Assembly: GCA_010909165.1 (NCBI GenBank)
Contig: VJWM01000108.1
Location: forward strand, 997,237 to 1,061,236
Reading direction: 5' to 3'
Length of the DNA: 64,000 nucleotides
DNA from: Anthoceros angustus
Lineage: Eukaryota > Plantae > Anthocerotophyta
In this document: piece after piece, positions 1,940 to 38,342 of the stretch
How the letters are laid out: each line of letters begins with the position of its first letter
Numbering within the stretch: the first letter of the stretch is position 1
Notes under the pieces: generated by a model
The model's database searches: none
What the model saw: the letters and a program-made list of their open reading frames with translations, nothing else
Told to the model about the DNA's origin: nothing
Position numbers and translations under genes: made by a program

Positions 1940-4900
1940 ATGGCCACTATATGGCAGCCGGACCCGTTGTGGACCCAACAAATCGGTGTTTGTACAGGGA
2001 TTCTACCAGGAGCTCCCACTCACCTCACCTTAGGGAGTCAACCCCTGGCACCAGCCTGCAGGTGCTGCAGTGTAAGGAGCCCAGCACTTCCAGTTCCGAG
2101 AAAATCTGTGGATGGGGACGGTTTTTGCAGCGATGGTCGTCGCAAGGAGCAGGAGCACTTGTGGCAACATTTTTTTCTGGATCCTACTATGTGGTGGGAC
2201 AACAGACGACATAAGAAGAGCTCCCGTTCCCCTGACTTCCGGCGTAAGGGGTCCAGCGAGGCCCTGTGGTTAAACAGCATGCTGAAGCCAGCTTGGGTTG
2301 ATGAGCAGCTTGTTGCTTTGGATATGCAGATGGGTCATGGTGGCTCTCTTTTCTTCAAGCCGAACTCTGCAGATGATCCTCACCCTCGCACGCGTGCAGG
2401 ATGGGAAATGGGCGTCGTAACGCCCGTAACTGTGCGGATGTTATGTCAGCAGGGGAAGCTTTCTGAGGCCGTTCAAGCCCTGGAATCTCTGGCGCAGACA
2501 GACTCTCCTATTTCCCAGTCTCTGTTTTACGTAGTGCTGAAACTGTGTGCAGCTAAGAAGGACCTAGTTGTGGGGCGACGAGTTCATGACCTCACTATCA
2601 AACTTGGGTACGAGTCGAATGCATACTTGGGGAATCATATCTTGCGCATGTATGCATCTGGAGGTAGGCTGCAGGAGGCCATGGATGTGTTCACCACGGT
2701 GGGCAAACCAGATGCCTTCATGTGGTTCTCCATAATCTCCGCATACACTAAGCATGGGAAACCTGCAGAGGCTGTACAACTATACCATGAGATGCGTAGG
2801 TCAGGAGTGAAAGCGGATGCCCACGTCTTTGTAGCTGCCCTCCAAGCTTGTGCATTTACCGCCGACTTGGAATCTGGCAGGAAAGTGCACTGTGATGTGT
2901 TGCAGAGTGGCATTTCTCCCGATGTGTTTGTTGGAAATTGCCTGGTTGACATGTATGCAAAATGTGGCGAACTGGAAGCTGCACGTCGGGCCTTTGACAG
3001 CTTGCCGTCAAAGGATGTCGTGACATGGACTGCTCTGATTGCTGGGTATACACAGCAAGGGCTCGGCCAAGAGGCACTTGTTTTATATGGACAAATGGAG
3101 CAGAGGGCCTCATTTTGGCTGACCATGTTACTTTTGCTTGCCTTCTGAAGGCCTGTGCAAGCACTGGTGCCTTACAGAAGGGCAGGCAGCTGCACTCACA
3201 GATTGTGGAAAGAGGACTGCTGATGATATACTGGTGGGCAACTGCCTGGTGGACATGTATGCAAAATGTGGTGAACTGGATGCACGCCAGGTTTTTGACA
3301 GCTTGGCCACAAAGGATGTGGTGACATGGAATGCCCTGATTGCTGGGTATGCACAGCAAGGGCTCGCCAAGAGGCACTTGTTTTATGGACAAATGGAGCA
3401 GGAGGCCTGATCGTGGCTAACCATGTTACTTTTGCTTGCCTTCTGAAGGCCTGTGCAAGCACTGGTGCCTTACAGAAGGGCAGGCAGCTGCACTCACAGA
3501 TTGTGGAAAGAGGACTGTTGCATGATATACTGGTGGGCAACTGCCTGGTTGACATGTATGCAAAATGTGGCGAACTGGAAGCTGCACGTCGGGCCTTTGA
3601 CAGCTTGCCGTCAAAGGATGTCGTGACATGGACTGCTCTGATTGCTGGGTATACACAGCAAGGGCTCGGCCAAGAGGCACTTGTTTTATATGGACAAATG
3701 CAGCAAGAGGGCCTCATTTTGGCTGACCGGGTTACTTTTGCTTGCCTTTTGAATGCCTGTGGAAGCACAGGTGCCTTGCAGAAGGGCATGGAGCTGCACT
3801 CACAGATTGTGGAAAGAGGACTGTTGCATGATATACTGGTGGGCAACTCTCTGGTGGACATGTATGCAAAATGTGGTGAACTGGAAGGTGCACGCCGGGT
3901 TTTTGACAGCGTGTCCACAAAGGATGTGGTGACATGGAATGCCCTGATTGCTGGGTACACAGCAAGGGCTCGCCAAGAGGCACTTGTTTTATATGGACAA
4001 ATGGAGCAAGAGGCCTCATTTTGGCTGACCATGTTACTTTTGCTTGCCTTCTGAAGGCCTGTGCAAGCACTGGTGCCTTACAGAAGGGCAGGCAGCTGCA
4101 CTCACAGATTGTGGAAAGAGGACTGTTGCATGATATACTGGTGGGCAACTCTCTGGTGGACATGTATGCAAAATGTGGTGAACTGGAAGGTGCACGCCGG
4201 GTTTTTGACAGCGTGTCCACAAAGGATGTGGTGACATGGACGGCGCTGATTGCTGGGTATGCCCAGCAAGGTCTTGGACAGGAGGCACTTGTTGTATATG
4301 GACAAATGGAGCAGGAAGGCCTGATCGTGGCTAACCATGTTACTTTTGCTTGCCTTCTAAAGGCCTGTGCAAGCGCTGGTGCCTTACAGATGGGCAGGCA
4401 TCTGCACTCACAGATTGTTGAAAGAGGACAGCTACATAACGTATTGATGGGCAACTGCCTGGTGGACATGTATGCAAAATGTGGTGAACTGGAAGATGCA
4501 CGCCAGGTTTTTGACAGCTTGGCCACAAAGGATGTGGTGACATGGAATGCCCTGATAGCTGGGTATGCACAGCAAGGACTTGGACAGGAGGCACTTGTTG
4601 TATATGGACAAATGGAGCAGGAGGCCTGATGTGGCTAACCATGTTACTTTTGCTTGCCTTCTAAAGGCCTGTGCAAGCACTGGTGCCTTACAGAAGGGCA
4701 GGCAGCTGCACTCACAGATTGTTGAAAGAGGACAGCTACATAACGTATTGTGGGCAACTGCCTGGTGGACATGTATGCAAAATGTGGTGAACTGGAAGAT
4801 GCACGCCAGGTTTTTGACAGCTTGGCCACAAAGGATGTGGTGACATGGAATGCCCTAATAGCTGGGTATGCACAGCAAGGACTCGGCCAAGAGGCACTTG

Positions 4901-7636
4901 TTCTGTATGAGCAAATGGAGCAAGAGGGCCTCATTTTGGCCGACCGTGTTACCTTTGGTTGCCTTCTAAAGGCCTGTGCAAGCACTGGTGCTTTACAGAA
5001 GGGCAGGCAGCTACACTCTCTGATTGTGGAACGCGGGCATCTTGACATATGGCTAGGCAACTGCTTGGTAGACATGTACGCAAAATGTGGCGAACTAAGA
5101 GATGCACGCCAGGTTTTTGACAGCTTGGCCTCAAAGGATGTGGTAACATGGAATGCCCTAATAGCTGGATTTGCACAGCAAGGACTTGGCCAAGAGGCGC
5201 TTGTTCTGTATGGACAAATGGAGCAGAGGCCTCATTTTGGCCGATGTTACTTTTGCTTGCCTTCTGAAGGCCTGTGCAAGCACTGGTGCCTTACAGAAGG
5301 GCAGCTGCACTCAGATTGTGGAAGAGGACTGCTGGATAAGGTAGTGTTGGGCAACTGCCTGGTGGACATGTATGCAAAATGTGGCGAACTGAAGATGCAC
5401 GCCAGGTTTTTGACAGCTTGGCCTCAAAGGATGTGACATGGACTGCTCTGATTGCTGGTATGCACAGCAAGGGCTCGCCAAGAGGCACTTGTTCTGTATG
5501 GACAAATGGAGCAGATGGCCTCATTTTGGCTGACGATGTTACTTTTGCTTGCCTTCTGAAGGCCTGTGGAAGCACTGGTGCCTTACAGAAGGGCAGGCAG
5601 CTGCACTCACAGATTGTGGAAAGAGGACTGCTGGATATACTGGTGGGCAACTGTCTGGTGGACATGTATGCAAAATGTGGTGAACTGGAAGGTGCACGCC
5701 GGGTTTTTGACAGCGTGTCCACAAAGGATGTGGTGACATGGACGGCGCTGATTGCTGGGTATGCCCAGCAAGGTCTTGGACAGGAGGCACTTGTTGTATA
5801 TGGACAAATGGAGCAGGAAGGCCTGATTTTGGCTGACCATGTTACTTTTGCTTGCCTTCTAAAGGCCTGTGCAAGCGCTGGTGCCTTACAGATGGGCAGG
5901 CATCTGCACTCACAGATTGTTGAAAGAGGACAGCTACATAACGTATTGATGGGCAACTGCCTCGTGGACATGTATGCAAAATGTGGTGAACTGGAACATG
6001 CACGCCAGGTTTTTGACATCTTGGTGACAAAGGATGTGGTGACGTGGAATGCCCTAATAGCTGGGTATGCACAGCAAGGACTCGGCCAAGAGGCACTTGT
6101 TCTGTATGAGCAAATGGAGCAAGAGGGCCTCATTTTGGCCGACCGTGTTACCTTTGGTTGCCTTCTAAAGGCCTGTGCAAGCACTGGTGCTTTACAGAAG
6201 GGCAGGCTGCACTCTGATTGTCAAAACGCTGGATCTTGACATATGGTGGGCAACTGCCTGGTGGACATGTACGCAAAATGTGGCGAACTAAGAGATGCAC
6301 GCCAGGTTTTTGACAGCTTGGCCTCAAAGGATGTGGTAACATGGAATGCCCTAATAGCTGGATTTGCACAGCAAGGACTTGGCCACGAGGCGCTTGTTCT
6401 GTATGGACAAATGGAACAAGATGGCCTCATTTTGGCCGACGATGTTACTTTTGCTTGCCTTCTAAAGGCCTGTGCAAGCACTGGTGCCTTACAGACTGGC
6501 CGACGGCTGCACTCTCAGATTGTGGAAAGAGGACTCCTGGATAAGGTAGTGTTGGGCAACGGCCTAGTGGACATGTATGCAAAATGTGGCGAGCTAGATG
6601 TTGCCCGCCAGGTTTTTGACGGCTTGGCCACAAAGAATGTGGTGACCTGGAATGCCCTGATAGCTGGTTGTGGTACGTGTGATGAAGGTCACAACGCAGT
6701 AGCTTGTTTTGAGGAGATGTTAGTTGCTGGTATGCAACCTGATGATACTACTTTTACTTGCCTATTAGCAGCTTGCAGTCATGAGGGGCTGGTGCACGAG
6801 GGTCGCAAGCACTTTGAGTCCATGGCCAAACAGCATGGCATCAAGCCTACTATTGAGCATTACAGTTGCATGATTGATCTTCTTGGGCGTGCAGGCCTTT
6901 TAGATGAGGCGGAGAAGATGCTATTGTCATGTGATGACGAAAGCAATGTTGTGGGGTTGACGTCCTTGCTGAATGCCTGCAAAAGTCACGGGGATATAGA
7001 GGCGGCGTTGTTTTGAAAGACTGGTGACACTGGAGCCTCAGAGTGCATCGCCATATGTGCTCATGGCCAATGCCTATGCAGATGCAGGTAGGTGGACCGA
7101 TGTAGAGAGGATTGAAAGGCAGAGGATGGTGGCAGGAGCTAACAAGAAACCTGCAGTGGCGAGCATTGAGGTGAAGAAGCAGGTACATACATTTGTGGTG
7201 GGAGAAAACAGAGATGGTGGCAGGAGCTAACAAGAAACCTGCAGTGGCGAGCATTGAGGTGAAGAAGCAGGTACATACATTTGTGGTGGGAGAAAACAGA
7301 GATGATCTTGTGCTCAAGACGGAGAGCATGAGTGCACGTCTGAAGCAGGAAGGGGGCCATGTACCTCACACCAAGTTGGTGTTGAAGCCACTGGGTGAGA
7401 AGGAAAAGGAAGATGCGCTTTGCGGGCATGCTGAGAAGCTAGCTCTGGCGTTTGGTCTCTTGAACACTCCAAGAGGCACACCTCTGGTGGTAACCAAGAA
7501 CCTACGGATGTGCAGTGACTGCCACAGTTCGACCGAGATCATGTCAAGGGTTGAAAAGAGAGACATTGTTGTAAGGGATGGATACCGTGTGCATCGATTC
7601 GCTGCTGGTTGTTGCAGTTGTAAGGGTCGACCGTGA
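1940..7636 (+). CDS. PDF-motif + PLS-PPR-E-DYW:KP (GRP-type) RNA editing factor, paralogue B; many frameshifts (assembly error or pseudogene)
   Basis: 13 copies of a ~306-bp S-P-L triplet (DMYAKCG...VVTW[T/N]ALIAGY...[10 protein letters not shown]), then E motifs ([23 protein letters not shown]), [21 protein letters not shown] and terminal CSCKGRP. The frame is broken by many 1-2 nt deletions and an 88-bp tandem duplication at 7125-7300. Confidence 0.9.
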
Positions 7637-9269: not shown

Positions 9270-9598
9270 CCTGGCAGGACTCGCCTGAACCTAGCCTGCT
9301 GCGGCCTCCTCGGATCTTCTCCTCCCACGACCTTGCCTTGCCGCGTCCGCCACCGATCTCAACCCGGTTCAGACCAACGCGGGTCTCCCTCAATAGTCTG
9401 AATCGTCCAAACGCAGCTGTATCCACTCGACTACAGCAGCTAGAATTACCCAGTGATATATCCACATATACCGTAGAGGCCATCAGGGTTCCGATGTTCC
9501 AATTCGCTGGTTTTGATGACTTCAAGGTGGTGTCGTCATGAAGACCTAGGGGTCGTGCTCTAGTGTCATCTTCCGGCATCGATCCCGGCCCCTGACCG

Positions 9599-12500
9599 AT
9601 GGCCACTGTATGGCAACCAGATCCGGTGTGGACCCAACAAATTGGCGTGTCTCCAGGGCTTCTTCGAGGAGATCTTGCTCACCTCACCTTCGGGAGTCAA
9701 GTTGTGCCAAACAACCCAGCATCCAGGTGCAGCAGTGTAAGGAGCCCAGCACTTCCACTTTCGACGAAATGGGTGGGTGGGGAAAGATTGTCCAGCGATC
9801 ACAGTCACCAGGAGCAGGAGCACTTGTGGCAACAATTTTTTCTCGATCCTACCATGTGGTGGGACAACAGACGAGATAAGAAGAGCTCACATTTGCCTGA
9901 CTTCCGACGAAAAGGGTCCAACGAGGTCCTGTGGTTAAACAGCATGCTGAAGCCAGCTTGGGTTGACGAGCAACTCGTTTCTTTGGATATGCAGATGGAT
10001 CATTGTGCCTCTCCTTCCAAGTCGCGCTCTCCAGATAAGCCTGAACCTGGCACGCGTGCAGGATCGGAAATGGACGTCGTGGCCGTGCGCACGTTATGTC
10101 AGCAGGGGAAGCTTTCTGAGGCCATTGGAGCCCTGGAATCACTGGCGGAGGCAGACTCTGCTACTCCCCAGACTCTGCTTTACACTGTGCTAAAACTGTG
10201 TGCAGGTCGAAGGGATCTGGTTTTGGGGCGACGGGTTCATGACCTCATCGTCAAACTTGGGTACGAGTCGGATGCGTACTTGGCGAACCATATCTTGCGC
10301 ATGTATGCATCTGTAGGTAGGCTGCAGGAGGCCATGGATGTGTTCACCGGGGTTGGAAAACCAAATGCCTTCATGTGGTTTTCCATAATATCTGCATATG
10401 CTAAGCATGGGAAACCTAAGGAGGCCATACAACTATACAATGAGATGCGTAGGTCAGGAGTGAGGGCGAGTCCTCACGTTTTTGCAGCTGCCCTTCAAGC
10501 TTGTGCATTTGCTTCCGACTTGGAATCTGGAAGGAAAGTGCACTGTGATGTTTTGCACAGTGGCCTTCCTCCCGACTTGGTTGTTGGAAACTGCCTGGTG
10601 GACATGTATGCAAAATGTGGCGAACTGGAAGATGCACGCCGAGCCTTTGACAGCTTGGCGACAAAGGATGTGGTGACATGGACGTCCCTGATTGCTGGGT
10701 ATACACAGCAAGGGCTCGGCCAAGAGGCGCTTGTACTGTATGGGCAAATGGAGCAAGAGGGCCTGATTTTGGCTGACCGAGTTACTTTTGCTTGCCTTCT
10801 GAAGGCCTGTGCGGGCACTGGTGCCTTGCAGAAGGGCAGGCAGCTGCACTCACTGATTGTCAAAAGAGGACTCCTGCATGAAATACTGGTGGGCAACTGC
10901 CTGGTGGACATGTATGCAAAATGTGGTGAACTAGACGCTGCACGCCAGGTTTTTGACAGCATGGCCACAAAGGATGTGGTGACATGGACGCCCTGATTGC
11001 TGGGTATGCACAGCAAGGCTCAGCCAAGAGGCGCTTGTTCTGTATGGACAAATGGAGCAGGAGGCCTCATTTTGGCTGACCGAGTTACTTTTGCTTGCCT
11101 TCTGAAGGCCTGTGCGGGCACTGGTGCCTTGCAGAAGGGCAGGCAGCTGCACTCACTGATTGTCAAAAGAGGACTCCTGCATGAAATACTGGTGGGCAAC
11201 TGCCTGGTGGACATGTATGCAAAATGTGGTGAACTAGACGCTGCGCGCCAGGTTTTTGAAGTGCTGCCTAGAAAGGATGTGGTGACGTGGACGACCCTGA
11301 TTTCTGGGTATGCAGAGCAAGGCCTCGGTCAAGAGGCCCTGGTTCTGTATGGACAGATGGAGCAAGAGGGCCTCATTTTGGCTGACCGTGTGACTTTTGC
11401 TTGCCTTCTGAAGGCTTGTGCTAGGACTGGTGCCCTACAGAAGGGCAGGCAGCTGCATTCACTGATTGTGGAAAGAGGGCAGCTGGACAGATGGTTGGGC
11501 AACTGCCTGGTGGACATGTATGCAAAATGTGGTGAACTGAAGGATGCACGCCAGGTTTTTGATAGCTTGGCTTCAAAGGATGTGGTGACGTGGAATGCCC
11601 TAATTGCTGGGTATGCACAGCAAGGTCTTGGCCAAGAAGCGCTTGTTCTGTATGGACAAATGGGGCAAGATGGCCTCATTTTGGCTGACGATGTTACTTT
11701 TTCTTGCCTGCTAAAGGCCTGTGCAAGCACTGGGGCCTTACAGACTGGCAGGCAGCTGCACTCAGAGATTGTGGAAAGAGGACTGCTGGATAACGTAGTG
11801 TTGGGCAACTGCCTGGTGGACATGTATGCAAAATGTGGCAAGCTGGAAGTTGCACGCCAGGTTTTTGATAGCTTGTCCATGAAGAATGTGGTCACATGGA
11901 ATGCCTTGATAGGCGGGTGTGGTGCCTGTGATGAAGGTTACAATGCAGTAGCTTGTTTTGAAGAGATGTTAGTTACTGGTGTGCAGCCTGATGATACAAC
12001 TTTTACTTGCCTTTTGGCAGCCTGCAGTCATGAGGGGCTGGTTCATGAGGGTTGCAAGTACTTCGATTCCATGGCTGAACAGCATGGCATCAAACCTTCT
12101 ATTGAGCATTACACTTGTATGATCGATCTTCTTGGTCGTGCCGGCCAATTAGATGAGGCCGAGGACATGCTATTGTCATGTGATGACCAAAGCAATGTTG
12201 TGGGGTTGACGTCTTTGCTGAATGCCTGCAAGACTCATGGGGATATAGAAAGGGCGACCCGCTGTTTTGAAAGTCTGATTAGACTGGAGCCTCAGAATGC
12301 ATCAGCATATGTGCTCATGGCCAATGCCCTAGCAGACGCAGGGAGGTGGATTGATGTAGAGAGGATTGAAACACAGAGGTTGGTAGCAGGAGCTAACAAG
12401 AAACCTGCAGTGGCAGGCATTGAGGTGAAGAAGCAGGTACATACATTTCTGGTGGGAGAAAACAGGGATGATCTTGCTCTCAAGGTGGAGAGCATGAGTG

Positions 12501-12802
12501 CACGCCTCAAGCAGGAAGGGGGCCACGTGCCTCACACAAAGTTGGTTTTGAAGCCACTGGGTGAGAAGGAAAAGGAAGACGCGCTTTGCGGGCATGCTGA
12601 GAAGCTAGCTCTGGCGTTTGGTCTTTTGAACACTCCAAGTGGCACACCTCTTGTGGTAACCAAGAATCTACGCATGTGCAGTGACTGCCACAGTTCGACC
12701 GAGATCATGTCGAGGGTTGAAAAAAGAGACATTGTTGTAAGGGATGGGTACCGTGTGCATCGATTCGCAGCTGGTTGTTGCAGTTGCAAGGGTCGACCGT
12801 GA
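9599..12802 (+). CDS. PDF-motif + PLS-PPR-E-DYW:KP (GRP-type) RNA editing factor, paralogue C; a few frameshifts near 10990-11065
   Basis: The 465-aa and 601-aa ORFs join across a short indel-damaged stretch. Five DMYAKCG-containing triplets, then KKPAVAGIEV, HAEKLA, CSDCH and CSCKGRP*. Confidence 0.92.
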
Positions 12803-17744: not shown

Positions 17745-18830
17745 TTAGCATTAATTAATCTAATTACTTATCTTTAAGTAAGTGATTAGTGTTAATTAAT
17801 CTAAGATGCTTATGCTAATTAAGCATTGATTAGTGTTAATTAATCTAAAGTGCTTATGTTAATTAAGTGTTGATTAGTGTTAATTAATCTAATGTGCTTA
17901 TGTTAATTAAGCATTGATTAGTGTTAATTAAACATGGTTAGCAATAGCTAAGTGGATAAGCTCAAGTAATATGCTTTGGCATATTCCTTGCATATTATAG
18001 TGTATTCTTAGGATACAATAGCTAAGTGGATAAGCTCAAGTAATATGCTTTGGCATATTCCTTGCATATTATAGTGTATTCTTAGGATATTTCGCATATC
18101 GATGCCAATAGGATATCTTAGGAATATGCCGATGCCAGGTCTAGTATATATAGACCCTTCCATTGAGGACAAGCTCAGATCATAGCTTGTCCTCTAGATA
18201 TGCAATGCAAGAGCGTTGTGAGGAGGCCAAAGCTATGACTCCGAGAGCGATGTGTGAGGAATTTGCGTGTTGTTCTCGTGGGGAGAGTGTGTTTGTGCCA
18301 CGACGCGAGCTACTCCTCCTGTTGTTACAAGCTATGATCTCGCACGCTAGTGATGCCAGCGATGCCAGCGATGCTAGGCGATGCTGCGATGCTAGCGATG
18401 CTAGCGATGCTAGGCGATGCCAGCGATGCTAGGCGATGCCAGGCGATGCTAGGCGTGCTAGCGATGCTGCGATGCTAGGCGATGCTAGGCGTGCTAGGCG
18501 AGGCTACGCGAGGCAACGCTAGTTCTTTAAGCAAGTAGGCAAGGGACTCAAAGTGTGCCCAAGGCTTAAGGCCAAGAGGAGGAGGCGGCCCAAGTCCAAG
18601 GCCAGAGGAGGAGGAGAAGAAGCCTGCCCAAGGCCAAGGAGAGGAGGCCCAAGTCCAAGGCCAAGGAGAGGAGGCAAGAAGCCCAAGTCCAAGGCCAAGG
18701 AGAGGAGGAGAAGAAGCCCAAGCCCAAGGCCAAGGAGAGGAGGAGGCAAGCCCAAGTCCAAGGCCAGAGGAGGCAAGAAGCCCAAGTCCAAGGCCAAGGA
18801 GAGGAGGCAAGAAGCCCTACCAAGGAGAGG
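17745..18830. repeat. cluster of tandem repeats upstream of the Gypsy-like element
   Basis: ~34-bp AT-rich units (gattagtgttaattaatctaa...) at 17745-17930, a ~74-bp direct duplication at 17941-18088, 9-10-bp GCGATGC[T/C]AG units at 18347-18500, and CCAAGG/GAGGAGG units at 18560-18830. Confidence 0.8.
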
Positions 18831-19235: not shown

Positions 19236-22200
19236 ATGCCTGGACACACTCGATCCGGACGGAGCTACCAACCAAGTCCATCGAGCGAATTCAAGTCCCG
19301 ACCAAGAGGAGAAGTGCGAACACTCGATTTTGGTACCACCGGACGCGGAGGAACCCAGCGACACAATCAACAATCTTTGAAGGATCATGGTGGCAACACA
19401 CAAGACACGTTAGTCTTTGCCGGGACAACTCAGTGGAAGCGACAGCGAGGAGGACTTGTCTCTAGGAGTCGTCAAGATGGGAGGAGACAAGGATCGAATG
19501 GAGTTGTTCACAGGACGAGCGGGCACCTTGCCACTGGAGGACTTCATCGAGAAGTACGGTGCGGTGTGTGCGGAGATGGAATTGAAGACCGGATACACGA
19601 AGCGATACGGCTTCATCCAAATGCCGAAGTACTTGGGGGATGAAGCATTGGCGTGCTATCGCGAGCACAAGGCGAGGTTGTTGAGCACATATCTGGAGGA
19701 CCAGTGAGTAGCAGTTCAAGCTCCGAAGGAACCGGTCACGGAGGCGGTGGCACCGAGTGGGCACGATCCCATCAAGAGATGTTTGACATCTTCCTACTGG
19801 AGTTTCGCAAGCACGGATGAGAAGATCTCCGAGCCGACACTTCAAGATGAAGTCAGCGAGACGCAAGATGGCTTATCAAGAATCGACCACTGGTACGTGA
19901 CACCAAGATCATGAGTGACCGATCGGGCGCAGAGAAGTACTTGCAGGCATTGCCATATGCACGCGCATGAAGGTGCAACAAGCGGTGCACAAAGACGGCA
20001 ACACTACACCCTCAAGGAAGTGTACGAGATGGGCGACAAGATAGGGCCGACACTTTCTCTCGTCTTTGCAAGTGATTACTCCAAGACAAGTAGGAGTGGT
20101 GGACGACATGACCGACGCGGAGGTCAGAGTGGAGGAGCTCGGCGAGACAAGCCAGCCCACAGCCCAAGTGACGAGCCCTGCGTGAGGTGCCGAGGACGGA
20201 CCATTCCCTCATGAGTGCGAGCATGCATTCGGAGGAGTCAAGGGTGAGGAGCCATGCCCTAGGTGTGGGAGGTACGGCACAATGAAGCGGCATGTTGGGA
20301 GAAGCATCCGAATTGCGGCCTCACGGGTTATCGAGCAGCAACCCCGCCAATGCATCTGCGTCAACCTCATCCACAAAATCGAAGAGCAAAGGCGCCGTGG
20401 AGGAGGCACTGCAAGTCCCGTGGACAAAAGAAACGGAAGCATCAAAGAAGACGATGGACAGCTACGTGGCACGCCTTGCAAAGCTGGAGAAGTTGGTGCG
20501 GAAGGCGAAGATCAAGGAGAGCAGTTCATCATCGAGGACGAAGAAGATGAGCACAAGCTTGGATACATGGCGTGACCAGATCCAAGGGCAGGGAAGAAAC
20601 CTCGCAGCTACGAGAGAAGATAGCTCGAGGAAGAAGAGGATGTCTTGACACCGGTCACGGAAGACACGGAAGGAAGCTTGGGGATCCTCTTCCGAACCTA
20701 TGCCAAGATGCCAAAGTCGTTTGAGCCATTGCCAGGAGCAACTGGGAGCAACATCAAAGTCCAGTGGGCGATGTGGAGAAACCCATGCAGATTGTCGACG
20801 GAGACGATGGCACAAAAGCTTCTGGAGATGCCATGTTTCAGCCTACAAGACATGGGGTTGAGCGTGAAGGAAGTCAGGGGTTTGACTCGGCGGATGTTGA
20901 CAACCCTTGAAGACGAAGCAAGTGTCGACAATGTGCCACAACAGGTGGCAATGATGTCATTGCTGACCTCGGAGCCAAGCATCTCTGTGGAGAAGCGGAA
21001 TGCTGCACGAGTGGGAGTGGCTTTGGTCAACAATCGGGAGAGGCACATTGAAATCAATGGATTCGCACCAAGGAGGTGTTAATTGACACCGAGCACCGGT
21101 GATCGTTGGAAGAAGAGTGAAGGAAGCGTTGGGTCTCCACCAAGAAAGGTTGAAGGAAACCAAGTGGAAGATCCGATCACTGGGACCACGGAGCATGTGT
21201 TGGGGTGACAAGGTACAAGCTGAAGGTTTCATTCAAACCAAGAACAGACTTCACCTTTGTCGAGGTACACCGCTTGGTCACCGATGCGCATACTTTGATG
21301 TCTTCTTTGGGAGCGGACGCTTTGTACAAACCTCGAGTCATGGTGGATTTGTGGACGGAGGCAGTCTACTATCGACCAGTGGAGAAGCGGAGCAAAACCG
21401 ATGAACGGATTGCCCGCATCCCTCTGCTGCATGGCAAGGATCATGAGAACCTCATTGCCAGCGTCTACCCGGTGTTTGGCGCCGTAGTGAAGGACACGCC
21501 ATACGTGCTTGAACCTCTTGGCGTGTGTCTAACAACCGCAACTGACCTGATGGAGGATTTCGACGAGGAGGAGGAAGACAAGCTAGGGTTGCAACCACCC
21601 TCGGAGGAGGTTCTTCAAGTCACTCGGACGGAGCTGGTGATCGCAAAGAATGAGCCGTGCAAAAGGCTGTGGAGGATGGTGCAAGAGGACCAAGGTCCTA
21701 TGAGCCGAGAACTGTAAGTTCTTGCCTAGGGTTGAGCCTGTTTGTGACCTAAACACCCAGGTCATCACATGGCGACCTCGGGAAGACGGCATAGTGATGG
21801 TGGAACTCTTTGGAGGCATCGATCGGCTTGGGCGGTGCTAAAGTGTGGCATCAAAGTGCGAAGATACGTGCATTGTGACCCGGATCCAAAAGCAAGGATT
21901 GTGTCACAGAAGCGCGTAAGAGACTTGATGGGGGAGTACCCTAACCTCGACGTGGGAGTCGGTGAAGGGTTACCGAGGCTGCCGATGGATGTTCGCATGA
22001 TAGGGTTGTCCCATTTGAGTTGTCTTGGCAACCGGTGGACCTTGTCATCGCAGTTGGGAGTGTCAAGGACTATCCTCTGCGGGGAAAGGGTCAAGGTCAA
22101 GGATCCACGCATTGTTCTATGACCTGATGAGGATCTTGCGCTTGATCCAGAAAGGGCAAGAAAGGCCTTGCGGATACATGTTGGAGAATGTGCCAGCATG

Positions 22201-22900
22201 CATGAGCATGAAGAAGCAAGTCCAGGAGGATTTTGGCATGATCCGAGGAGTGACCGAGAAGGAACGGTGTCGATTGCTTGGGCAAGCATTTGACATGGAC
22301 ATGATGACCTGGTTGTTCAGCGCTGGAGTCGCTTACCAACTTCGAAACCAGAAGAAGGCGGGGTTGAAGCAGCGGGTTCGGTGGGCAAAAGGCATTCCAG
22401 CACTCGCATCTCAACAAGAGAAGGCGAGTTTGGAGGGCAAGGAGAGTAAGCGCGTAGAGGAAGCGTGCAAGCCATCTGAGCCACAGCCACATGAGTGGTT
22501 AACAGGCATCGAGTTGAAGAGCAATCAACGGCGTCAGCTAAAGGAGTTGTTGGAGGCATCGCGACATGTGTTTGCTTTCACGCTATGGAGATGGGGAAGT
22601 ACACCAAAGGGAAGTTCCACATAGAACTAATCAAGAATGAACAAGTGTTCGCAGAGGCACAGCTCGAAGGCAAGAAGAAAATGGCGAGCAACCGGCTGGG
22701 GGGGAGAGTAGTCCACATGACAGGCGCATGAGGATGCTGAAGACAACCCTCCACTTATGGACAAGGTTCATAACCTCTGGACGACATTCAAGAAGATTAA
22801 TCGGTTTTGTGCACAATGCGCTAACAAGAGGTGCGTACGTGTGTAGTCCTACTAATGATAATGTTTTGACTTAGAGTCTCACATTATCAGGGGGGGATTG
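19236..22900 (+). mobile_element. degenerate Ty3/Gypsy-like retroelement: gag - CCHC knuckle - protease - C5 DNA methyltransferase - RT start; RT core, RNase H and integrase deleted; LTRs unresolved
   Basis: gag-like start MPGHTRSG and MELFTGRAGTLPLEDFIEKY. CPRCG..GHNEAACWEKHP knuckle at ~20250-20310. VLIDT protease motif at ~21077-21092. Gypsy pre-RT segment QRRQLKELLEASRHVFAF..EMGKY...FHIEL at ~22525-22630. Purine tract AGGGGGGGA at ~22889. Confidence 0.75.
21722..22330 (+). pseudogene. DNA (cytosine-5)-methyltransferase domain inside the retroelement polyprotein (frameshifted, internal deletion)
   Basis: Joining frames gives motif I GIVMVELFGGI, II KVRRYVHCDPD, III LPMDVRMI, IV PVDLVIA/WECQGLSSAGKG...ALFYDLMR, VI GYMLENVP and X ERCRLLGQAFDM, in canonical order. 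Confidence 0.85.
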
Positions 22901-22992
22901 GTTGCACCTATATCTGCGTATGAGATTTGTTTGCTTGGTTGTTGGTCGGGAAGTGCTTATATGAATTCAGTGCTTACCTCGTGCGACATCGC

Positions 22993-23632
22993 CATACAAT
23001 GGCTGGCCCACAATGGCTGGCCATACAATGGCTGGCCCACAATGGTGCCATACAATGGTCGGCCCGACAATGGCTGACAATGGTTGGCCATACAATGGCT
23101 GGCCCACAATGGGCCGACAATGGTCGGCCCGACAATGGTTGGCCATACAATGGTGGCCCACAATGGCCATACAATGGTTGGCCCGACAATGGCTGGCCCG
23201 ACAATGGCTGGCCCGACAATGGCGCCCGACAATGGCGGGCCGGACAATGGCGGCCCGACAATGGTCGGCTCGACAATGGTCGGCTCGACAATGGCTGGCC
23301 ATACAATGGCCGGGCCGACAATGGCATACAATGGCTGGCCCTACAATGGCTGGCCCGAAAATGGCTGGCCCGACAATGGCTGGCCATCGATGGTTGATCA
23401 TACAATGGCTGGCCAAAATCCAAGAATGGCGCCTAACGCCGGCAATGGCCGCCCGACGATGGTTGGCCCGATGATGGCGCCCGACAATGGCTGGCCCGAC
23501 AATGGCCGGGCATAAAATGGTTGGCCAAAATCCGTGAATGGCGTACGCCCGACAATGGTCAGCATAAAATGGCTGGCCAAAATCTAGGAATGGCGCCCAA
23601 CGCCCGACAATGGCTGGCCATATAATGGCCCG
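22993..23632. repeat. 15-bp satellite/minisatellite ACAATGGCTGGCC(CG/CC/AT), array 1
   Basis: Dozens of tandem units, with an interspersed longer variant (ggccaaaatccaagaatggcgcc..acgcccg). Confidence 0.95.
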
Positions 23633-23994
23633 CAAAAGGCGGCATGTACAAACATGTACCATCGGGGGAGTGCGCACTTGCTTGTGGGTGTAGAGGTGGC
23701 ACCTGCTCATAATAAGAACACTTAAGAAAATGCCAAAGAGCGTGACGTACTAGTATTAGAGCGCCCCCGCTCGCGACTTTTTCCCTTTCTAGGCCAGACT
23801 GTGTGTAAGGGCTGGGATTAATGGAGTGCGTGTTGCCGAGTGGCACGCCTCCGCACATTTGAATGGACGTGTTCATCATCCCCCCACCAAATTTAAAATA
23901 CCCCTCCCCCCTTCCTCCCGTCTCCCACCTAGCCCCCCTTGCTAGTCCACCAAATTTATAACTTTGCTTACATTTTACAATGTTGCTTATACTT

Positions 23995-24555
23995 CACAAC
24001 GCAATCTACAACATGGGAGCCACATCATCGATCCCCTGTTATAAATGAACTCTAATCATATTTTTGAAATCAATACCAATAATAAAGACTTTTGAAGAAA
24101 TAAAGATCAAATATCAAATTTTGAGAAAAAGATTTTACAATGTAATCTACAACAAGGGAGGCACGTCATCAATCCACCGCTGCAAATGGTCTTCAATAAT
24201 ATTTTTGTGATTAATAACAATAATAAAGAGTTTAAAAATGAAGAACACATTTCGAGAAAAATATTTTACAACGTAATCTACAACAAGGGAGCCACATCAT
24301 CAATCGCTGATATATATTACCTCAAATCATATTTTTTGATTAATAATAAAAAAAAGTTTTAACAGAATAAAGAATACATTTTGAGAAAAATATTTTACAA
24401 TGTAATCTATAACAAGGAAGCCACATCATCAATTGCTATTGTAAATGGCTTCCAATCATATTTTTTTGATTAATGATGATAAAATATTTTTTTTGAAGAA
24501 ATAAAGATCAAAATTTGAGAAAAAAGGCTTTACAACGTAATCTACAACAAGGGCG
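23995..24555. repeat. AT-rich ~130-bp tandem repeat, about 5 units; also at ~48705-49260 and ~53418-53960
   Basis: Recurrent core TTACAA(C/T)GTAATCTACAACAAGGGAGCCACATCATCAAT. Confidence 0.85.
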
Positions 24556-24599
24556 CCCAACGCCCGACAATGGCTGGCCCGACGATGGCTGGCCCGACA

Positions 24600-25573
24600 T
24601 GAGGAGGTTGCTGCTAGCAGTAAGTCATTAGCAAAAATTGCTTCATCTGCCTGCTCATCATTTTGCTGTTGTTCTTCTTCCCCCCCTGCAGGAGCAATCT
24701 CCTCAGGTGCGAAGTCGTGAAAAACAGTGACGTCAGGAAGAGCAGAGAGGTCGAAATCCTCCTGTGTAGTGGGAACAGCTCCCACTTGCGGCCAAGTCCG
24801 GCTTTCATCAAAGGTGACACTGCGTGCGTAGACCACCTTGTTCTGAGGTACGTCATAAAGCTTGTAAGCTTTTATACCTTCAGTGTATCCTATCATAAGG
24901 AATTTCTTGGCCTTAGCAGCTAACTTGGTTCTCTTGGCCTTAGGAATGAAAGCGTAAGCTATGCAACCGAAGGTTCAAGATGAAGGATAGGCGGTTTTCG
25001 CCAAAGAAAGCTTCATAAAGTGCATCCGTATCTCGGTGAGGACGTCACAAAGGAAGCCTGGACCATATCTCAGCTGAAGTCTTGCATCCAGAGGTCTGTC
25101 TCAGCATGTCAGAGGTCAACCCACTCCGGATCAGGTACATGGCAGCTTCATCCCTAATATATTGTCCATGTATCCTGATTCTTCTTTTCAGTAATAGAAG
25201 GAGTGGAGTCGGCAGGTACAATGGCAGGAAACTTGTCCTCCCCTTTGGCCAGCTTCCATAGCTGCTTGTTTTGTAGTGCTCCTTGCATCCGCATAACCTA
25301 GATATCATAATCTGCTCCCCCAAATCTGTCCTTTTCCTTGAAGCCATCTCCACCAAGGTTAGTGTTTGGCTCAGCCATGATTAGGATTTTTGTAGGTCCT
25401 TCCTAGCTGTTAGGATTTTTATGGCTGTTAGACTAATGCTCTTGTCTAACCTAACCTATGTAGGTCAACAGGGCTAATGGTTCAAGGGTATCTAAGATGC
25501 TATTGATGTATCAAAGATGGGCTGCAAACTGCGGCCAGTTTTTACTAAGGGTTAGCAGGGTTAGCATGTCTGT
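24600..25573 (-). mobile_element. Copia family 4 fragment (gag N-terminus joined to integrase C-terminus); continues upstream at 36587-~37270 beyond the Copia-1 insertion
   Basis: MAEPNTNLGGDGFKEKDRF gag start at 25379 and MIGYTEGIKAYKLYD...VVYARSVTFDE integrase tail. The flanks of Copia-1 rejoin to match the uninterrupted copy near 56.84 kb. Confidence 0.8.
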
Positions 25574-26359: not shown

Positions 26360-26747
26360 TCTAACCTTTGTTTCCTGGTTTTGTCTAGGGTTTTTTGTTG
26401 ATCAGGATAGGTTCTAATGGATGTGCTATCTGTTTCTCTTGTATCCCCCCACCATGAAGCTTCCGCTGAAGCAGCACAGGCGGTTGGTAACCGTTCCTCC
26501 AAACCTTCCTTGCCCTAGGACAGAAAGTCAAAAGTCAGCAGGTTAATTTAGCTTTTTCTGCTGAAACCGTAACCCTAAAAAAAAAAAAAGTGTTTCCTTC
26601 TATAACCGTTTACCTGTTCAGACCTTTGCTCTCCAGCGTATGTCTACTAGAGACCATCTGCTGTTCTTTCCCCTGTCTCCCTACATTTCACGTAGACGTG
26701 GCCTAGGTACCAGTTCCTTACCTCCCAATCCTCTACAACCTGTCGTC

Positions 26748-27587
26748 ATGGCAGCTGCTACTATGTCATTTACCACTGATGTTAAAGATAAGGACAGGTT
26801 CAATGGAACCAAATTTCAGATTTGGCGTGTTCGTATGCAAAGTACCTTAAAAGCACGGGGAGTGTGGTCAGTTGTAGATGGCTCCTACCCAGAACCTGTC
26901 CTCCCAGCTGCTGGTTCCATCCCCGCGACAGGAGCAACTACTGTCACTCAAGTTGATGTTGATAAGTGGAATGGTCTGAACAGTATTGCCGTTGCCATTC
27001 TTATTTATGGACTTGATGAGGTCCTGATTCCGGATGTGGAATCTCTTACAAAAGCACATCAGATCTGGACTCAACTCACTGGTACATATGCCGTTAAAAC
27101 AATGCTTTCAAAGTCTGCAGCAATCCATGAGTTCTATACTTTGAGGATGCGGGAGGGTGATAGTGTGCCTGCCCACACAAGCAAGTTTCGTCACCTTCGC
27201 TCCCGCCTTGCTGAGTTGAACTCGACGATGTCGGATAAGGATGCCGTAGCACAACTGCTGCTCACCCTACCTGCATCATACCAAACATTCGTGTCACTCC
27301 AGAATGGACCTCTTGCTATAGCAGGTCAGAATTTAGCAGCTGGCAACCCGGCTGCCCTTACCTTGGAGAGTGTGATTGCTGCCCTTTATCACGAGGAACA
27401 GAGCCGACTTCGACATACCTCGAGTGGCTCTAGCAGAATCCAAACTGATCGTGTTTTATATACCTCACAGCGTGGAGGTTTTGGAAGAGGGCGAGGTAGA
27501 GGAGGAAGGTCCTCTTTCCAACGTCCACAACAAACCTCTAATGTTGTTGGATCATCTACTTCTAAGAAGCCTAGCAGTTGTAACTAG
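26748..27587 (+). CDS. Copia-1 gag (stop codon inside the zinc knuckle)
   Basis: KDKDRFNGTKFQIWRVRMQSTL...LLLTLPASY...CN*CQTPGHWERD. Confidence 0.85.
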   Translation: MAAATMSFTTDVKDKDRFNGTKFQIWRVRMQSTLKARGVWSVVDGSYPEPVLPAAGSIPATGATTVTQVDVDKWNGLNSIAVAILIYGLDEVLIPDVESLTKAHQIWTQLTGTYAVKTMLSKSAAIHEFYTLRMREGDSVPAHTSKFRHLRSRLAELNSTMSDKDAVAQLLLTLPASYQTFVSLQNGPLAIAGQNLAAGNPAALTLESVIAALYHEEQSRLRHTSSGSSRIQTDRVLYTSQRGGFGRGRGRGGRSSFQRPQQTSNVVGSSTSKKPSSCN

Positions 27588-30500
27588 TGTCAAACACCGG
27601 GACACTGGGAGAGGGACTACTTCGACCCCCGTGGCTGCATCGACCACGCCATGACACTTGCCTGCAACTGTACAAGCCAACTGTGGCATGCTCGACTCGG
27701 CCATGTCAACAAAAATACATTAATAAAAATGACCACTGAGAACTGCTATGCTGAACCACTTCCTTCTTGTTTCAAGGATTTACCAATCATGAGGCATGCT
27801 TGCTTGCAAAACAACGGAGAAGCCGTTTTCCCATGCTGGTTTTCGCATCTTCTCTCGATTTAATTCATGCCGATATCTCTGCAAGTTGCAGACCAAGTCC
27901 ATTGGTGGATCGTCCTATTATCTGACCATTACGGATGATTTTAGTCGCTACATATGGACTTACCCAATGACAAAGAAGAGTGATACGTTCACCTATTTTC
28001 AAGAGTGGTTGCCTATGGCGCAGAGGCAGTCTGGCCATTTCCTCAAGTGCATCTGTTCTAATAATGGGACTGAATTCTGCAACAACCAATTTGATCAGTA
28101 TCTCCAAGAGCATGGCATCATTTGACAACTCACAGTTCCTTACACACCACAGCAGAATGGTGTGGCGGAGCGCAAGAATCAGACCCTTATGGGCATGACG
28201 AGAAGTATGCTAAACCGCGCCTTTACTGCAGAATCAATGAGGCTATTGTGACTTCAACGTACATATGCCGTTAAAACAATGCTTTCAAAGTCTGCAGCAA
28301 TCCATGAGTTCTATACTTTGAGGATGCGGGAGGGTGATAGTGTGCCTGCCCACACAAGCAAGTTTCGTCACCTTCGCTCCCGCCTTGCTGAGTTGAACTC
28401 GACGATGTCGGATAAGGATGCCGTAGCACAACTGCTGCTCACCCTACCTGCATCATACCAAACATTCGTGTCACTCCAGAATGGACCTCTTGCTATAGCA
28501 GGTCAGAATTTAGCAGCTGGCAACCCGGCTGCCCTTACCTTGGAGAGTGTGATTGCTGCCCTTTATCACGAGGAACAGAGCCGACTTCGACATACCTCGG
28601 GTGGCTCTAGCAGAATCCAAACCGATCGTGTTTTATATACCTCACGTGGAGGTTTTGGAAGAGGCGAGGTAGAGGAGGAAGGTCCTCTTTCCAACGTCCA
28701 CAACAAACCTCTAATGTTGTTGGATCATCTACTTCTAAGAAGCCTAGCAGCTTGTAACTAGTGTCAAACACCGGACACCGGGAGAGGGACTACTTGACCC
28801 CGTGGGCTGCATCGACCACGCCATGACACTTGCGCGCATGCAAGCCAAGCGTGGCATGCTCGACTCGGCCATGTCAACAAAAATACATTAATAAAAATGA
28901 CCACTGAGAACTGCTATGCTGAACCACTTCCTTCTTGTTTCAAGGATTTACCAATCTGTGAGGCATGCTTGCTTGCAAAACAACGGGAGAAGCCGTTTTC
29001 CCATGCTGGTTTTCGCACATCTTCTGTTCTCGATTTAATTCATGCTGATATCTCGGCAAGTTGCAGACCAAGTCCATTGGTGGATCGTCCTATTATCTGA
29101 CCATTACGGATGATTTTAGTCGCTACATATGGACTTACCCAATGACAAAGAAGAGTGATACGTTCACCTATTTTCAAGAGTGGTTGCCTATGGCGCAGAG
29201 GCAGTCTGGCCATTTCCTCAAGTGCATCCGTTCTGATAATGGGACTGAATTCTGCAACAACCAATTTGATCAGTATCTCCAAGAGCATGGCATCATTCGA
29301 CAACTCACAGTTCCTTACACACCACAGCAGAATGGTGTTGCGGAGCGCAAGAATCAGACCCTTATGGGCATGACGAGAAGTATGCTAAACTGGGCAGCTT
29401 TACCTGCTGAATACTGGGCTGAGGCTTTTGTGACTTCAACGTACATTCTGAATCGGCTGATAACTACCTCTCTTCAAGGCAAGACCCCTTTCGAAATGTT
29501 TTGGAATAGAAAACCAAGCATCCTACATCTTAGAGTCTTTTGTTCGCCAGCTTTTGCCTACATTCCACAAGTCAAGCGTCAAAAGCTAGATGATAGATCT
29601 AGAGCCTTGCTATTTATTGGCTATAGCGAGGAAGCAAAGGCATATAAGTTAATAGACCCTCTTACCTTTGCCCCAGTCTTAGCAAGGAGTGTTGTCTTTA
29701 AGGAACTTGTGGACCCAGGATCCCCTGTGAGAACAGGAGTGCATGCAGACTCCGATTCTGATTCCTCTGATAATGAGGATATCTTCTCAGACCTGACTGG
29801 TTTTGATACACAGCCCATTCAATTTCCACAGGGTCCTCCTGTTATTCCTCAACCTGTGTTATTGCCTGGCCCAGCACATCAACCTGCAATCGCCCAACCT
29901 TTTTTGCCTCAAGGCCCTTATTCTGACCCCCTGGATGATTTCGAATTGGACCCCCTTGCTGCAGTCCAGGATCCCGATCAGCCTGATCTAGTCCTAGAGC
30001 CTGAACCTTTTTCTGCTCCAGACGAAGCTCCAGTCCTGTCAGATTCAGAGGTAGATCCCTATGTCGTCGTTGCCCCTAGACGGAATCCTCCTCGAGACCA
30101 ATGGGCAGAACCCCCTTATACCTCTGTCGATTTCAGACCCTCTGCCCGTGCAGCTAATCCCGGTAGTTCACCCCTTATCCTTGACCCTGTATCCATGGAC
30201 GAGGCATATGCAGGCCCTGATGCCTCTCATTGGCGAGCTGCCGTTGAGGAGGAGTATCAATCTATTATAAAAAACAAGACTTGGGAGTTAACAAATTTGC
30301 CACCTGGAAGGAAGGCAGTTACTTGCAAATGGGTTTTTAAAACCAAGCTTAATGCTGAGGGCGAGATTGCTCGGTACAAAGCCAGACTCTGCGCTCGAGG
30401 TTTCACCCAAGTCCTTGGTTTAGACTACCAGGAGACTTTCTCCCCTGTGGTCAAGGCACAATCCATCAAAATGCTGTTAGCCCTATCTGCTGAAAAGAAC

Positions 30501-32479
30501 TTGGAGCTACACCAAATGGATGTATGTACTGCTTTTCTACATGGTGAAATCAAGGAAGAAATCTACATGGAACAGCCCCAAGGCTATGTCGACAAGAAAT
30601 TTCCTAACAAGGTACTCAGGCTACTTAAAGCCCTGTATGGGCTCAAACAGAGTGCGATGTTATGGAATGAAAAGCTAGATGCTGAACTCAAGGCTTTGGG
30701 TTTTGTGCAAAGCAAAGCGGACTCGTCTGTTTACTACTTGGTTGATGGCTCTATGTTTTGTATCCTTGTCGCTTATGTGGACGATTGCATCTTCGCCTCG
30801 CAGACACCACCATTCTCAACAGAGTCAAGGATCTTCTCAGCAATAAATTCGAAATGAAAGATGTGGGAGCTTTAAAATTCTGCCTAGGTGTTCAAGTCCT
30901 AAGGAATAGAGAGAAGGGACTCATCATTATACATCAGAAGAAGTACTTAATAGAAATCTTGAGGCGATTTTCCCTTGATCAAGCTAGACCAGTTTCCACT
31001 CCAGGTTCTGTGGGAGTCAAGCTGACTGTAGACCAGTGTGCTGCTACCCTTGAAGAGACTGCCGATATGGAGAAGATTCCTTATAGGCATGCTGTAGTGT
31101 TAAGTTTAGTAAGAGTTACATAACCCTAGCTAATAGTCAGGCGAGTTAGGCTAACCTAGCTCGTTGTTTAACAATGATCCCTACGAAGGTGCCCGGGTTC
31201 CTATAAAAGGACCCCTAATCTATGTACTTTTCCAACTCTTTTCCTAATTCATGCTTCCGCTTTTGTTCTCATCTTAGGAAAGTTCACATGGTATCAGAGC
31301 ACAGCTCGAGGTCTAGCTGGGAGGCGCCACTACCGCCTCCGTGGCGCCCGCCTTCCCCACTCTCCTAGCAAAAAAAAAAAAAAAAAGAGAGGAAGGAAAT
31401 AGAAGGGGGAGGGAGTACTAGCATCCTATTTTCCTTGTTAGGATTTGTAGGCCCCTCCTGCCTCCTCCCCTCTTCCCCTTTTCTCCCATCCATGCAGACC
31501 AGGCAAGAAAAAAAAATCCGGCAACAAGGCATGCAGATCGGTTCCCCACCCAAGTCCCGATCCACGCCAAGGCCGCTTATTAGCGGAATTCCAATGAGCG
31601 CCAATTGACGCGTCAGATTGACCCCAACACGCGACGGCGAGGAGGGCCTCAGCACGGATCTGCAACAGGCCCCGAGGTCGGCACTGCTCATCGGATTTTC
31701 TACAAATTCTAGAAGCCCAGCGGGCTGCGGCAATCGAAGATGCGTTGAAGGCGGACCAGAAGGTTTCTGCGACCGGCACGTCCTTCAAATCTTGGGAGCA
31801 CATCGGCCAATTTCCCTATCCAGACTGCAATTGGGGCAATTGCCCTATCCAGATTGCAATTGGGGCAGGCGCCAAGCCGGGAGTGTGAAGAATCCATCCG
31901 GAGCCGGCCCAGCGCGCAGACATCGCACCCCCACCAATCCAAGATTCCGGTCGATGTGTAAAGGAGGAGCACCGTTCCGGACCTCAAGGATCTTCACCGG
32001 CGTCCCCAGCCAGATCTCCCGAGCAATCAGACCCCGACATCTCCCATTGCTGAAGATCTGGGCGAGCGCGGGGCTGCTGGGGGCGGATTGGGCGCAGGTC
32101 CCCATGCAGGCGCGGGCGCTCAGATCCGGCCAGGTGCGCGCACGTATGCCCCCGTGGGCCTGGAAAACTTCGCAGGCGCGGGCGCTCAGATCTGGCCAGG
32201 CGCGCCCTCAGATGCCTCCGTGGGCGATCCCCAGGCCCGGAGATCGACACCGGCGCGCGGCGCGGCAGGGCACAGATCTGCAGCGCGTGCCCCCACACGA
32301 ATGTAGGCACACTCCTGGGCACGGGTGTGGAGATGGGAGCGGGCGCTGGCGCGGTGATCAGCACGGGCGCAGGCACCGCGGGAGCAGGCGCGGCCAGGCT
32401 GGTTCTAATGGGCAGGCGCACGCGGCGCAGATGCGCGACCCGGGCTCGCGGGAGGCGCGAACCTCCCTGCCATCTGCCG

Positions 32480-37776: not shown

Positions 37777-38342
37777 TATGGCTGGCCCGACAATGGCTGG
37801 CCAAAATCCAAGAATGGCGCCCAACGCCCGATAATGGCTGGTCATACAATGGCTGGCCCCACAATGGCTGACCATACAATGGCTGGCCCCACAATGCCTG
37901 GCCCCGCAATGGCTGGCCATACAATGGTCGCCCCACAATGGTCGGCCATACAATGGTCGCCCATACAATGGCTGGCCATACAATGGCTGGCCCCACAATG
38001 GCTGGCCACAATGGCTGGCCATACAATGGCTGGCCATACAATGGCTGGCCATACAATGGCTGGCCCGACAATGGTAAAAATCCAAGAATGGCGCCAACGC
38101 CCGATAATGGCTGGTCATACAATGGCTGGCCCCACAATGGCTGACCATACAATGGCTGGCCCCACAATGGCTGGCCCGACAATGGCTGGCCATACAATGG
38201 TCGCCCCACAATGGCCCCGCCATACAATGGTCGCCCCACAATGGCTGGCCACAATGGCTGGCCCCACAATGGCTGGCCCCACAATGGCCATACAATGGTT
38301 GGCCCCACAATGGCTGACAATGGCTGGCCCGACAATGGCTGG
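37777..38342. repeat. 15-bp satellite array 2, left part; continues at 52703-53075 after Copia-3
   Basis: Same ACAATGGCTGGCC unit, split by Copia-3 with a GCTGG TSD. Confidence 0.95.

Follow-up and report, generated by a model that had tools for sequence, protein, structure and literature searches.

A decayed Gypsy retrotransposon of the hornwort Anthoceros angustus with a DNMT3-type methyltransferase domain in its polyprotein

Introduction

Does a land plant harbour retrotransposons that encode their own cytosine methyltransferase? The question is raised by a locus of the hornwort Anthoceros angustus, located in a 64,000-nucleotide stretch of contig VJWM01000108.1 (assembly GCA_010909165.1, positions 997,237 to 1,061,236 of the forward strand). 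We refer to this whole stretch as the window and give all positions within it. An original prediction, made from the sequence alone, had described a Gypsy-type element here with a DNA methyltransferase (DNMT) domain inside pol. Our analysis very probably identifies the locus as a dead, twice-deleted copy of a multi-copy hornwort Gypsy family, with a DNMT3-type methyltransferase between protease and reverse transcriptase (RT); this confidence concerns identity and family, not the activity of the enzyme. DNMT3-carrying Gypsy elements would thereby be extended from one alga to land plants.

Structure of the element

A decayed Gypsy polyprotein occupies positions 19471-22665 of the plus strand and comprises gag, a CCHC zinc knuckle, a protease, a cytosine methyltransferase and the start of RT (Table 1). 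All predicted parts, including the acidic linker and the pre-RT segment, are present in their places on the plus strand and are distributed over three frames. Colinear profile matches and the architecture of related elements bear out the placement of the DNMT inside the pol of a Gypsy-type element, between protease and RT. The methyltransferase motifs follow the unpermuted order I-IV-VI-X, and the domain, free of introns and seated between protease and pre-RT segment, does not match a stand-alone, intron-bearing host DNMT3 or DRM gene. No Pfam match was found for the gag-like block, and the profile search detected no RT, RNase H or Gypsy integrase in the element.

Table 1. Features of the element in the window. 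L, metagenome loci; P, related proteins; X, public sequencing runs.
Feature	Position	Strand	Evidence or remark
Gag-like N-terminal block	19471-19707	+	Ends at in-frame stop; tblastx, 33-45% identity to L060, L069, L042 at matching place
CCHC zinc knuckle, split by 1-nt slip	20255-20310	+	C-x2-C-x4 in one frame, H-x4-C in another
Conserved block between gag and protease	20786-20932	+	35-47% identity to L060, L069, L042, L070, L051
Aspartic protease, three frames	21002-21426	+	Profile of relatives (E 5e-8 at 21199-21426; E 0.028 at 21096-21176) and tblastx; core LIDT at 21079-21090 (core stretch 21076-21093)
Acidic linker	21550-21582	+	Sequence
DNMT3-type C5-methyltransferase with motifs I to VI; catalytic Cys in WECQG and Glu-Asn in ENV retained	21770-22246	+	VELFGGI 21800-21820; DLVIA before 22052; WECQGLSSAG 22055-22084; ENV 22184-22192; frame broken by slips near 21825, 22030, 22052
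First internal deletion, removing motifs VII-IX and the target-recognition region (about 135 residues)	22246/22247	+	Profile gap 161-295
DNMT motif X region (RLLGQAFD)	22247-22327	+	E 5.7e-7; LLGQAFD 22274-22294; aligned to DNMT3A end in family profile
Gypsy pre-RT segment and first RT residues	22412-22665	+	Pre-RT profile E 1.3e-6 at 22412-22591; P0051 residues 1044-1080 match 22540-22650 (tblastn); pre-RT block spans 22412-22650
Second deletion junction; RT, RNase H, integrase gone	22665-22681	+	Loose contig ends before 22681 in X3, X4; behind 22650 in X7
3' tail of pol	22681-22850	+	Covered in runs X1, X3, X4
Purine run (22889-22897), then 3' non-coding end to about 22990	22889-22990	+	Sequence

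A PHD-finger remnant in the 3' tail is possible: one loose contig end of run X4 looks PHD-like by eye. No such remnant was found in the tail itself, where a score of 22 was equalled by 215 of 265 controls and a score of 14.8 bits by 85 of 213. When the regions preceding the DNMT are pooled into one profile, it yields no significant match in the window (E 0.49), and no primer-binding site was found there. Upstream of gag, at 17779-18817, lie short tandem arrays with units of 44, 74, 9-10 and 34 nt; a tandem array also precedes gag in one related locus, L051, and the arrays may belong to the 5' region of the element. At the other end, contig cover in X3 and X4 drops after 22917, and at about 22990 another repeat cuts the element. 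This flanking repeat recurs at 37.8, 48.4 and 52.7 kb as a unit in which a 15-nt satellite and an AT-rich tandem repeat of 129 nt are combined with a minus-strand Copia integrase tail (22991-25018, 37778-38342, 48446-49706 and 52725-54389), the first copy being the one that truncates the Gypsy element.

Identity of the methyltransferase

A HMMER search with the frame at 22019-22621 against 1.84 billion representatives (E up to 0.001) matches 31 proteins, among them relatives from Closterium and Mesostigma. PF00145 is present in 29 of the 30 proteins scanned, and several matches also contain RT, RNase H, integrase, zinc knuckle or protease. A family DNMT profile of 330 positions, built from 57 relatives, aligns colinearly with the window: positions 20-88 at 21832-22032 (E 1.5e-8), positions 95-160 at 22052-22246 (E 2.2e-15) and positions 296-324 at 22241-22327 (E 5.7e-7). 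No second match to this profile occurs elsewhere in the six frames of the window. When a profile built from 20 family members (including two pieces of the window) is searched against PDB, the first 29 of 56 matches are DNMT3A/B/C (E 2e-18 to 2e-12), followed by M.HhaI (1.5e-10), DNMT2 (9e-4) and DRM2 (2e-3); for the Closterium relative P0040, all 26 matches are DNMT3. The Atlas model of the relative P0002 resembles DNMT3A clusters with TM values of 0.73-0.74 and a phage cluster with 0.69. Sequence comparison identifies the domain as a DNMT3-type C5-methyltransferase, the DNMT3 affinity being shown for the family.

The window retains the catalytic Cys of motif IV and the Glu-Asn of motif VI, motif VIII being deleted here. 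Among 80 related loci, the Glu of motif VI is found in 71 and the Asn in all; the Cys is also present in all 80, a count built into the search pattern and without evidential weight. The WEC that replaces the usual PC had been singled out in the original prediction. It is indeed there, and it proves to be common to many relatives: Closterium, Mesostigma and the group of L042 share it, and Klebsormidium has WPC.

Related elements

The related loci come from a metagenome scan with a six-sequence alignment, in which 198 of 208 pattern matches were confirmed and 80 loci kept. In tblastx comparisons with the window, L042 matches in 12 ordered blocks that extend from gag to pre-RT; L069, L070 and L051 match in 11 each, from gag to motif X. 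This colinearity in the best loci indicates that the methyltransferase is a fixed part of the polyprotein and not a chance insertion. Protease, DNMT, RT, RNase H and integrase also stand together in single open reading frames of P0005, P0088 (Klebsormidium) and P0084/86/87, contrary to the outcome that had been named beforehand as refuting the prediction. The family alignment retrieves KFL_009030040 of Klebsormidium nitens, with a protease-like region, DNMT, RT, RNase H and integrase in that order, and partial relatives in Closterium keep the order protease-DNMT-RT. Searches started from the window itself were less productive: a word-index search with its frame, confined to longer proteins, confirmed none of 2,172 candidates, and metagenome and viral scans with its peptides gave 68 and 4 pattern matches and no confirmed relative. 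In the alignment of protease plus DNMT, the highest identity of the window to a relative is 36% over 302 columns.

Split direct repeats in the arrangement A-coding-B-A-B are complete in five of eight related loci examined; one has the B pair alone and two have neither. A PHD region follows the integrase in 25 of the 80 loci. L042 (4377-13701), L078, L072, L044 and L032 are complete Gypsy-DNMT3 elements with both traits, and make good material for the question of how an element with a DDE integrase uses DIRS-like repeats. The ratio of non-synonymous to synonymous substitution rates (dN/dS) in the DNMT is 0.10-0.12 in three pairs among L034-L036, the least decayed relatives, where RT-RNase H-integrase gives 0.05-0.06.

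A different account would make the methyltransferase an independent insertion, of bacterial, phage or host-gene origin, or the product of an assembly chimera with a contaminant. The weak Pfam score, the broken frames and the weak matches of phage methyltransferases (E 0.03-0.07) would fit such an origin; it is nevertheless largely refuted, and we consider it very improbable. In the relatives, order and spacing are the same all the way from gag to pre-RT. Contig cover is unbroken through all domains in four sequencing runs. Read through with X at its breaks, the window reaches summed scores of 57-123 bits with 38 retrotransposon-type DNMTs; for seven enzymes of phages or plasmids, taken from the best-ranked rows of longer lists, the sums are 25-40 bits. 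Every retrotransposon score thus exceeds every prokaryotic one, and by this measure the closest relatives are not prokaryotic. In a tree of 36 rows (10 of 46 having been dropped as short or redundant), the window joins the retrotransposon DNMTs at 89/85, unstarred. Finally, the flanks consist of plant PPR genes and Copia elements.

Deletions and variant copies

Seven public sequencing runs are listed, from three organisms and three studies, and six contain part of the stretch; X1 may be the source sample, and the classification of X7 as an RNA run is only a guess. Contigs were aligned to the element at 80% likeness. X1, X2, X3 and X5 each yield between 1,832 and 3,827 variant contigs, which cover 29-30 of 30 bins. 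Contigs of all three organisms cover the whole element and have other sequence at both deletion points. We read this contig cover as a multi-copy family across related species, in agreement with what had been predicted. Within the family of the window, the rows listed contain six differences in the stable DNMT frame, four of them silent, too few to speak for or against selection (32 of 40 listed rows used, out of 60).

The absence of motif VIII, the target-recognition region, RT, RNase H and integrase, noted in the original prediction, resolves into two internal deletions. At the first, contigs of X1, X2, X3, X4 and X5 have loose ends just before 22247, the exact site of the 135-position jump in the profile; at this site, then, the sequence of other copies is different. 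Judged by eye, the loose ends resemble the stretch that precedes motif X in relatives. At the second, X3 depth is 0 at 22646-22679, and one X7 contig of 1,264 nt departs from the window at 22650 and continues; its first codons beyond that point fit an RT start by eye. This contig may represent another subfamily, since its 5' 79 letters do not fit. In X1, contigs do cover the second junction (22666); their summed depth there is 215, a figure that does not measure copy number. One contig extends some 30 letters beyond the junction, a borderline case under the rule of the tool. The form deleted for RT, RNase H and integrase may accordingly be present more than once.

Either as dead or as non-autonomous, the copy had been expected to be incapable of transposition by itself, and the two large deletions suffice to make it dead. 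The smaller lesions are of a different kind. The predicted splitting of the DNMT domain over several frames is real in the assembled sequence, yet some of the 1-nt slips may be assembly errors. All 12 indels listed (of 288) are bases that the window lacks, including sites in the knuckle and the DNMT, and the extra base at 20275 in the knuckle is present in other sequencing runs. Two near-identical duplicates elsewhere in the window contain 25 mismatches each over 1.1-1.2 kb, alongside 13 and 11 gaps, and the PPR genes of the window are frameshifted too. It is likely that a share of the slips stems from indel errors in the assembly.

The second deletion also bears on another scenario, in which the family survives in its host only as non-autonomous derivatives copied by another Gypsy element, with the DNMT as a relic. 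The loss of RT, RNase H and integrase from this copy fits it, as does the X1 cover across the junction. We nonetheless hold it to be quite improbable: in X3 and X4, contigs coming from other sequence join the window at 22681, the junction is uncovered in X3, the X7 contig runs on beyond 22650, and all five DNA-type runs have other sequence before 22247.

Discussion

Several observations weigh against our interpretation. PF00145, whose match had been proposed as a check of the domain, is found at 22055-22246 with 21.4 bits (E 2e-4) and in the longer frame 22019-22621 with 18.4 bits: a match is present but falls under the cut-off of 22, and it takes the dedicated family profile to reach E 2.2e-15. 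Alone, the DNMT fragment of the window, which is too short, finds no DNMT3 in PDB (best E 1.1); the DNMT3 assignment therefore rests on the family. The Atlas feature ranking of P0002 places two phage clusters level with a streptophyte cluster at 0.96. Phylogeny, also proposed as a check, upholds the grouping with retrotransposon DNMTs and leaves the sister of the window unplaced: in a second tree of protease plus DNMT, with 23 rows from a hand-picked input of 12 of the 80 loci and 10 proteins, the window forms its own deep branch, and neither tree includes host DNMT3. No terminal repeats were found in the window, including the truncated 3' end of the element, and no intact copy of the host's family was seen among the run contigs, which are short, with none spanning the element. 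Six other pairs of related loci, mostly stop-ridden copies, give DNMT dN/dS of 0.17-0.82. Lastly, the Klebsormidium enzyme produced no methylation in yeast, a result its authors termed inconclusive (PMC5890265).

What would such an enzyme do for its carrier? An intact copy would make one gag-pol polyprotein, which its protease would cut in the particle. Gag-pol is cleaved by its own protease inside the particle; lying between protease and RT, the DNMT would for that reason be packaged with RT and integrase and meet the fresh cDNA first. There it might write CG methylation on the cDNA or the new insertion, and the copy would enter the genome already marked, a step that we put forward tentatively, as plausible and still somewhat doubtful. 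Methylation of the element's own cDNA or insertion was proposed by de Mendoza et al. (PMC5890265). Given the retained catalytic Cys and Glu-Asn, this is the likeliest role, and intact copies would be predicted to methylate the new DNA of their own element. The domain may have been captured once, early in or before the streptophytes, and then kept under selection. A further-reaching version appears unlikely to us: the first land plants would have inherited a Gypsy lineage that methylates itself and has split direct repeats, and this lineage, its DNMT3 still working, would be amplifying in hornworts to this day. If true, insertions would be born methylated, and part of the hornwort repeat methylome would be written by a transposon enzyme and not by the host.

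The main rival accepts the same element and ancestry and denies methylation of the cDNA. The DNMT would be a module that binds DNA or chromatin, with a part in targeting integration or a function in the particle, or it would need host co-factors and act only on the integrated copy. The yeast result for KnitGypsy-Dnmt3 speaks for such a role (PMC5890265), and so do the WEC in place of the usual PC in many members and the PHD finger behind the integrase of 25 of the 80 related loci, which suggests chromatin targeting. Conversely, both the window and distant relatives retain the catalytic Cys and the Glu-Asn. In the same yeast assay, human DNMT3B was also negative, whereas the DIRS-borne Dnmt3 methylated CG (PMC5890265). 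We regard this binding or targeting role as possible, with clear reservations.

The open question of the 2018 paper, namely of what use a silencing enzyme is to the transposon encoding it, becomes testable in a plant: hornworts are now transformable and have a profiled methylome. In Anthoceros agrestis, transposons carry CG and CHG methylation and almost no CHH methylation (PMC10952607). The elements also matter for annotation, as bryophyte DNMT3 gene counts can be inflated by them and decayed copies fall below the Pfam cut-off.

Genomic neighbourhood

PLS-type PPR genes with E and DYW domains lie upstream of the element: two in tandem at 1937-7636 and 9596-12802 on the plus strand, and a further copy in inverted orientation at 2-1400. 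The two DYW domains both terminate in GRP, and the active site reads HAEK. DYW:KP proteins are restricted to hornworts, lycophytes and ferns, GRP being named as a hornwort variant (Ichinose et al., PMC9478123). This one marker family thus makes a hornwort host likely from the sequence itself. The genes are candidate U-to-C RNA-editing factors of the DYW:KP type. Downstream, a Copia-like element with gag, integrase and RT at 26565-30857 (plus strand) includes a tandem duplication of about 1.18 kb (27082-28264 and 28259-29446, 96% identical). A long GGCCCA(G) array at 62865-63400 stands beside a telomere-like word of the TAGGGTTT type.

Comparison with known systems

Sequence and architecture support assignment of the element to the published KnitGypsy-Dnmt3 kind; the architecture is known and the land-plant host appears to be new. 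KnitGypsy-Dnmt3 was described from Klebsormidium nitens (de Mendoza et al. 2018, PMC5890265). The 96-genome table of that study names Physcomitrella and Selaginella, and hornworts, Marchantia and Sphagnum are absent from it. A 2025 paper (PMC12344493) and the 2026 EpiLTR preprint (bioRxiv 10.64898/2026.05.21.726589) mention such elements, in the parts consulted, only as reported in streptophytes. Passages of PMC6453930, PMC10952607, PMC11982613 and PMC11194755 contain no mention of them in land plants, and no report of Gypsy-DNMT3 elements from land plants was found in the literature searched, which lay outside subscription papers.

With KnitGypsy-Dnmt3 (PMC5890265), the element shares an intronless, non-permuted DNMT3-type domain inside Gypsy pol and the protease-DNMT-RT order of KFL_009030040, and the A-coding-B-A-B split repeats recur in five of the eight related loci examined. 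It differs in its host, a hornwort instead of a charophyte alga, in sequence (about 38% identity over 92 aligned residues) and in WEC instead of WPC; the window copy is also dead and doubly deleted, with no repeats found. The unannotated Gypsy-DNMT proteins of Closterium spp. and Mesostigma viride and the metagenome loci L008-L087 have the same architecture, with GWECQG and colinear gag, protease and pre-RT blocks. Unlike these, the Tetradesmus-type relatives (P0083) carry the DNMT between RNase H and integrase. This second architecture occurs in a chlorophyte, Tetradesmus deserticola (P0083, P0089), and in P0019 and P0029; P0083 and P0089 end in a PHD finger. In P0015, a PCIF1-like match (PF12237, E 2.5e-6) stands ahead of the same DNMT domain.

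Other carriers and relatives of the domain are more distant. SymbioDIRS-Dnmt3 of Symbiodinium likewise holds a Dnmt3 in its Pol polyprotein, and its enzymes are the only ones of this sort shown to methylate CG de novo; it is a DIRS element with a tyrosine recombinase and is described as an independent capture (PMC5890265). Host DNMT3 enzymes, such as human DNMT3A/B and PpDNMT3b of Physcomitrium (PMC6453930), have the same linear motif order and provide the best PDB matches of the family profile, but introns and additional domains set their genes apart, and these lie outside any polyprotein. Much lower scores with the family profile are obtained for DRMs, which are circularly permuted. EpiLTRs are also long terminal repeat retrotransposons that combine a DNMT with a chromatin-reading domain; in their case the DNMT is the sister of DNMT4 and is accompanied by DAM and a chromodomain, and the preprint describing them lists the streptophyte Gypsy-DNMT3 as a separate acquisition (bioRxiv 10.64898/2026.05.21.726589).

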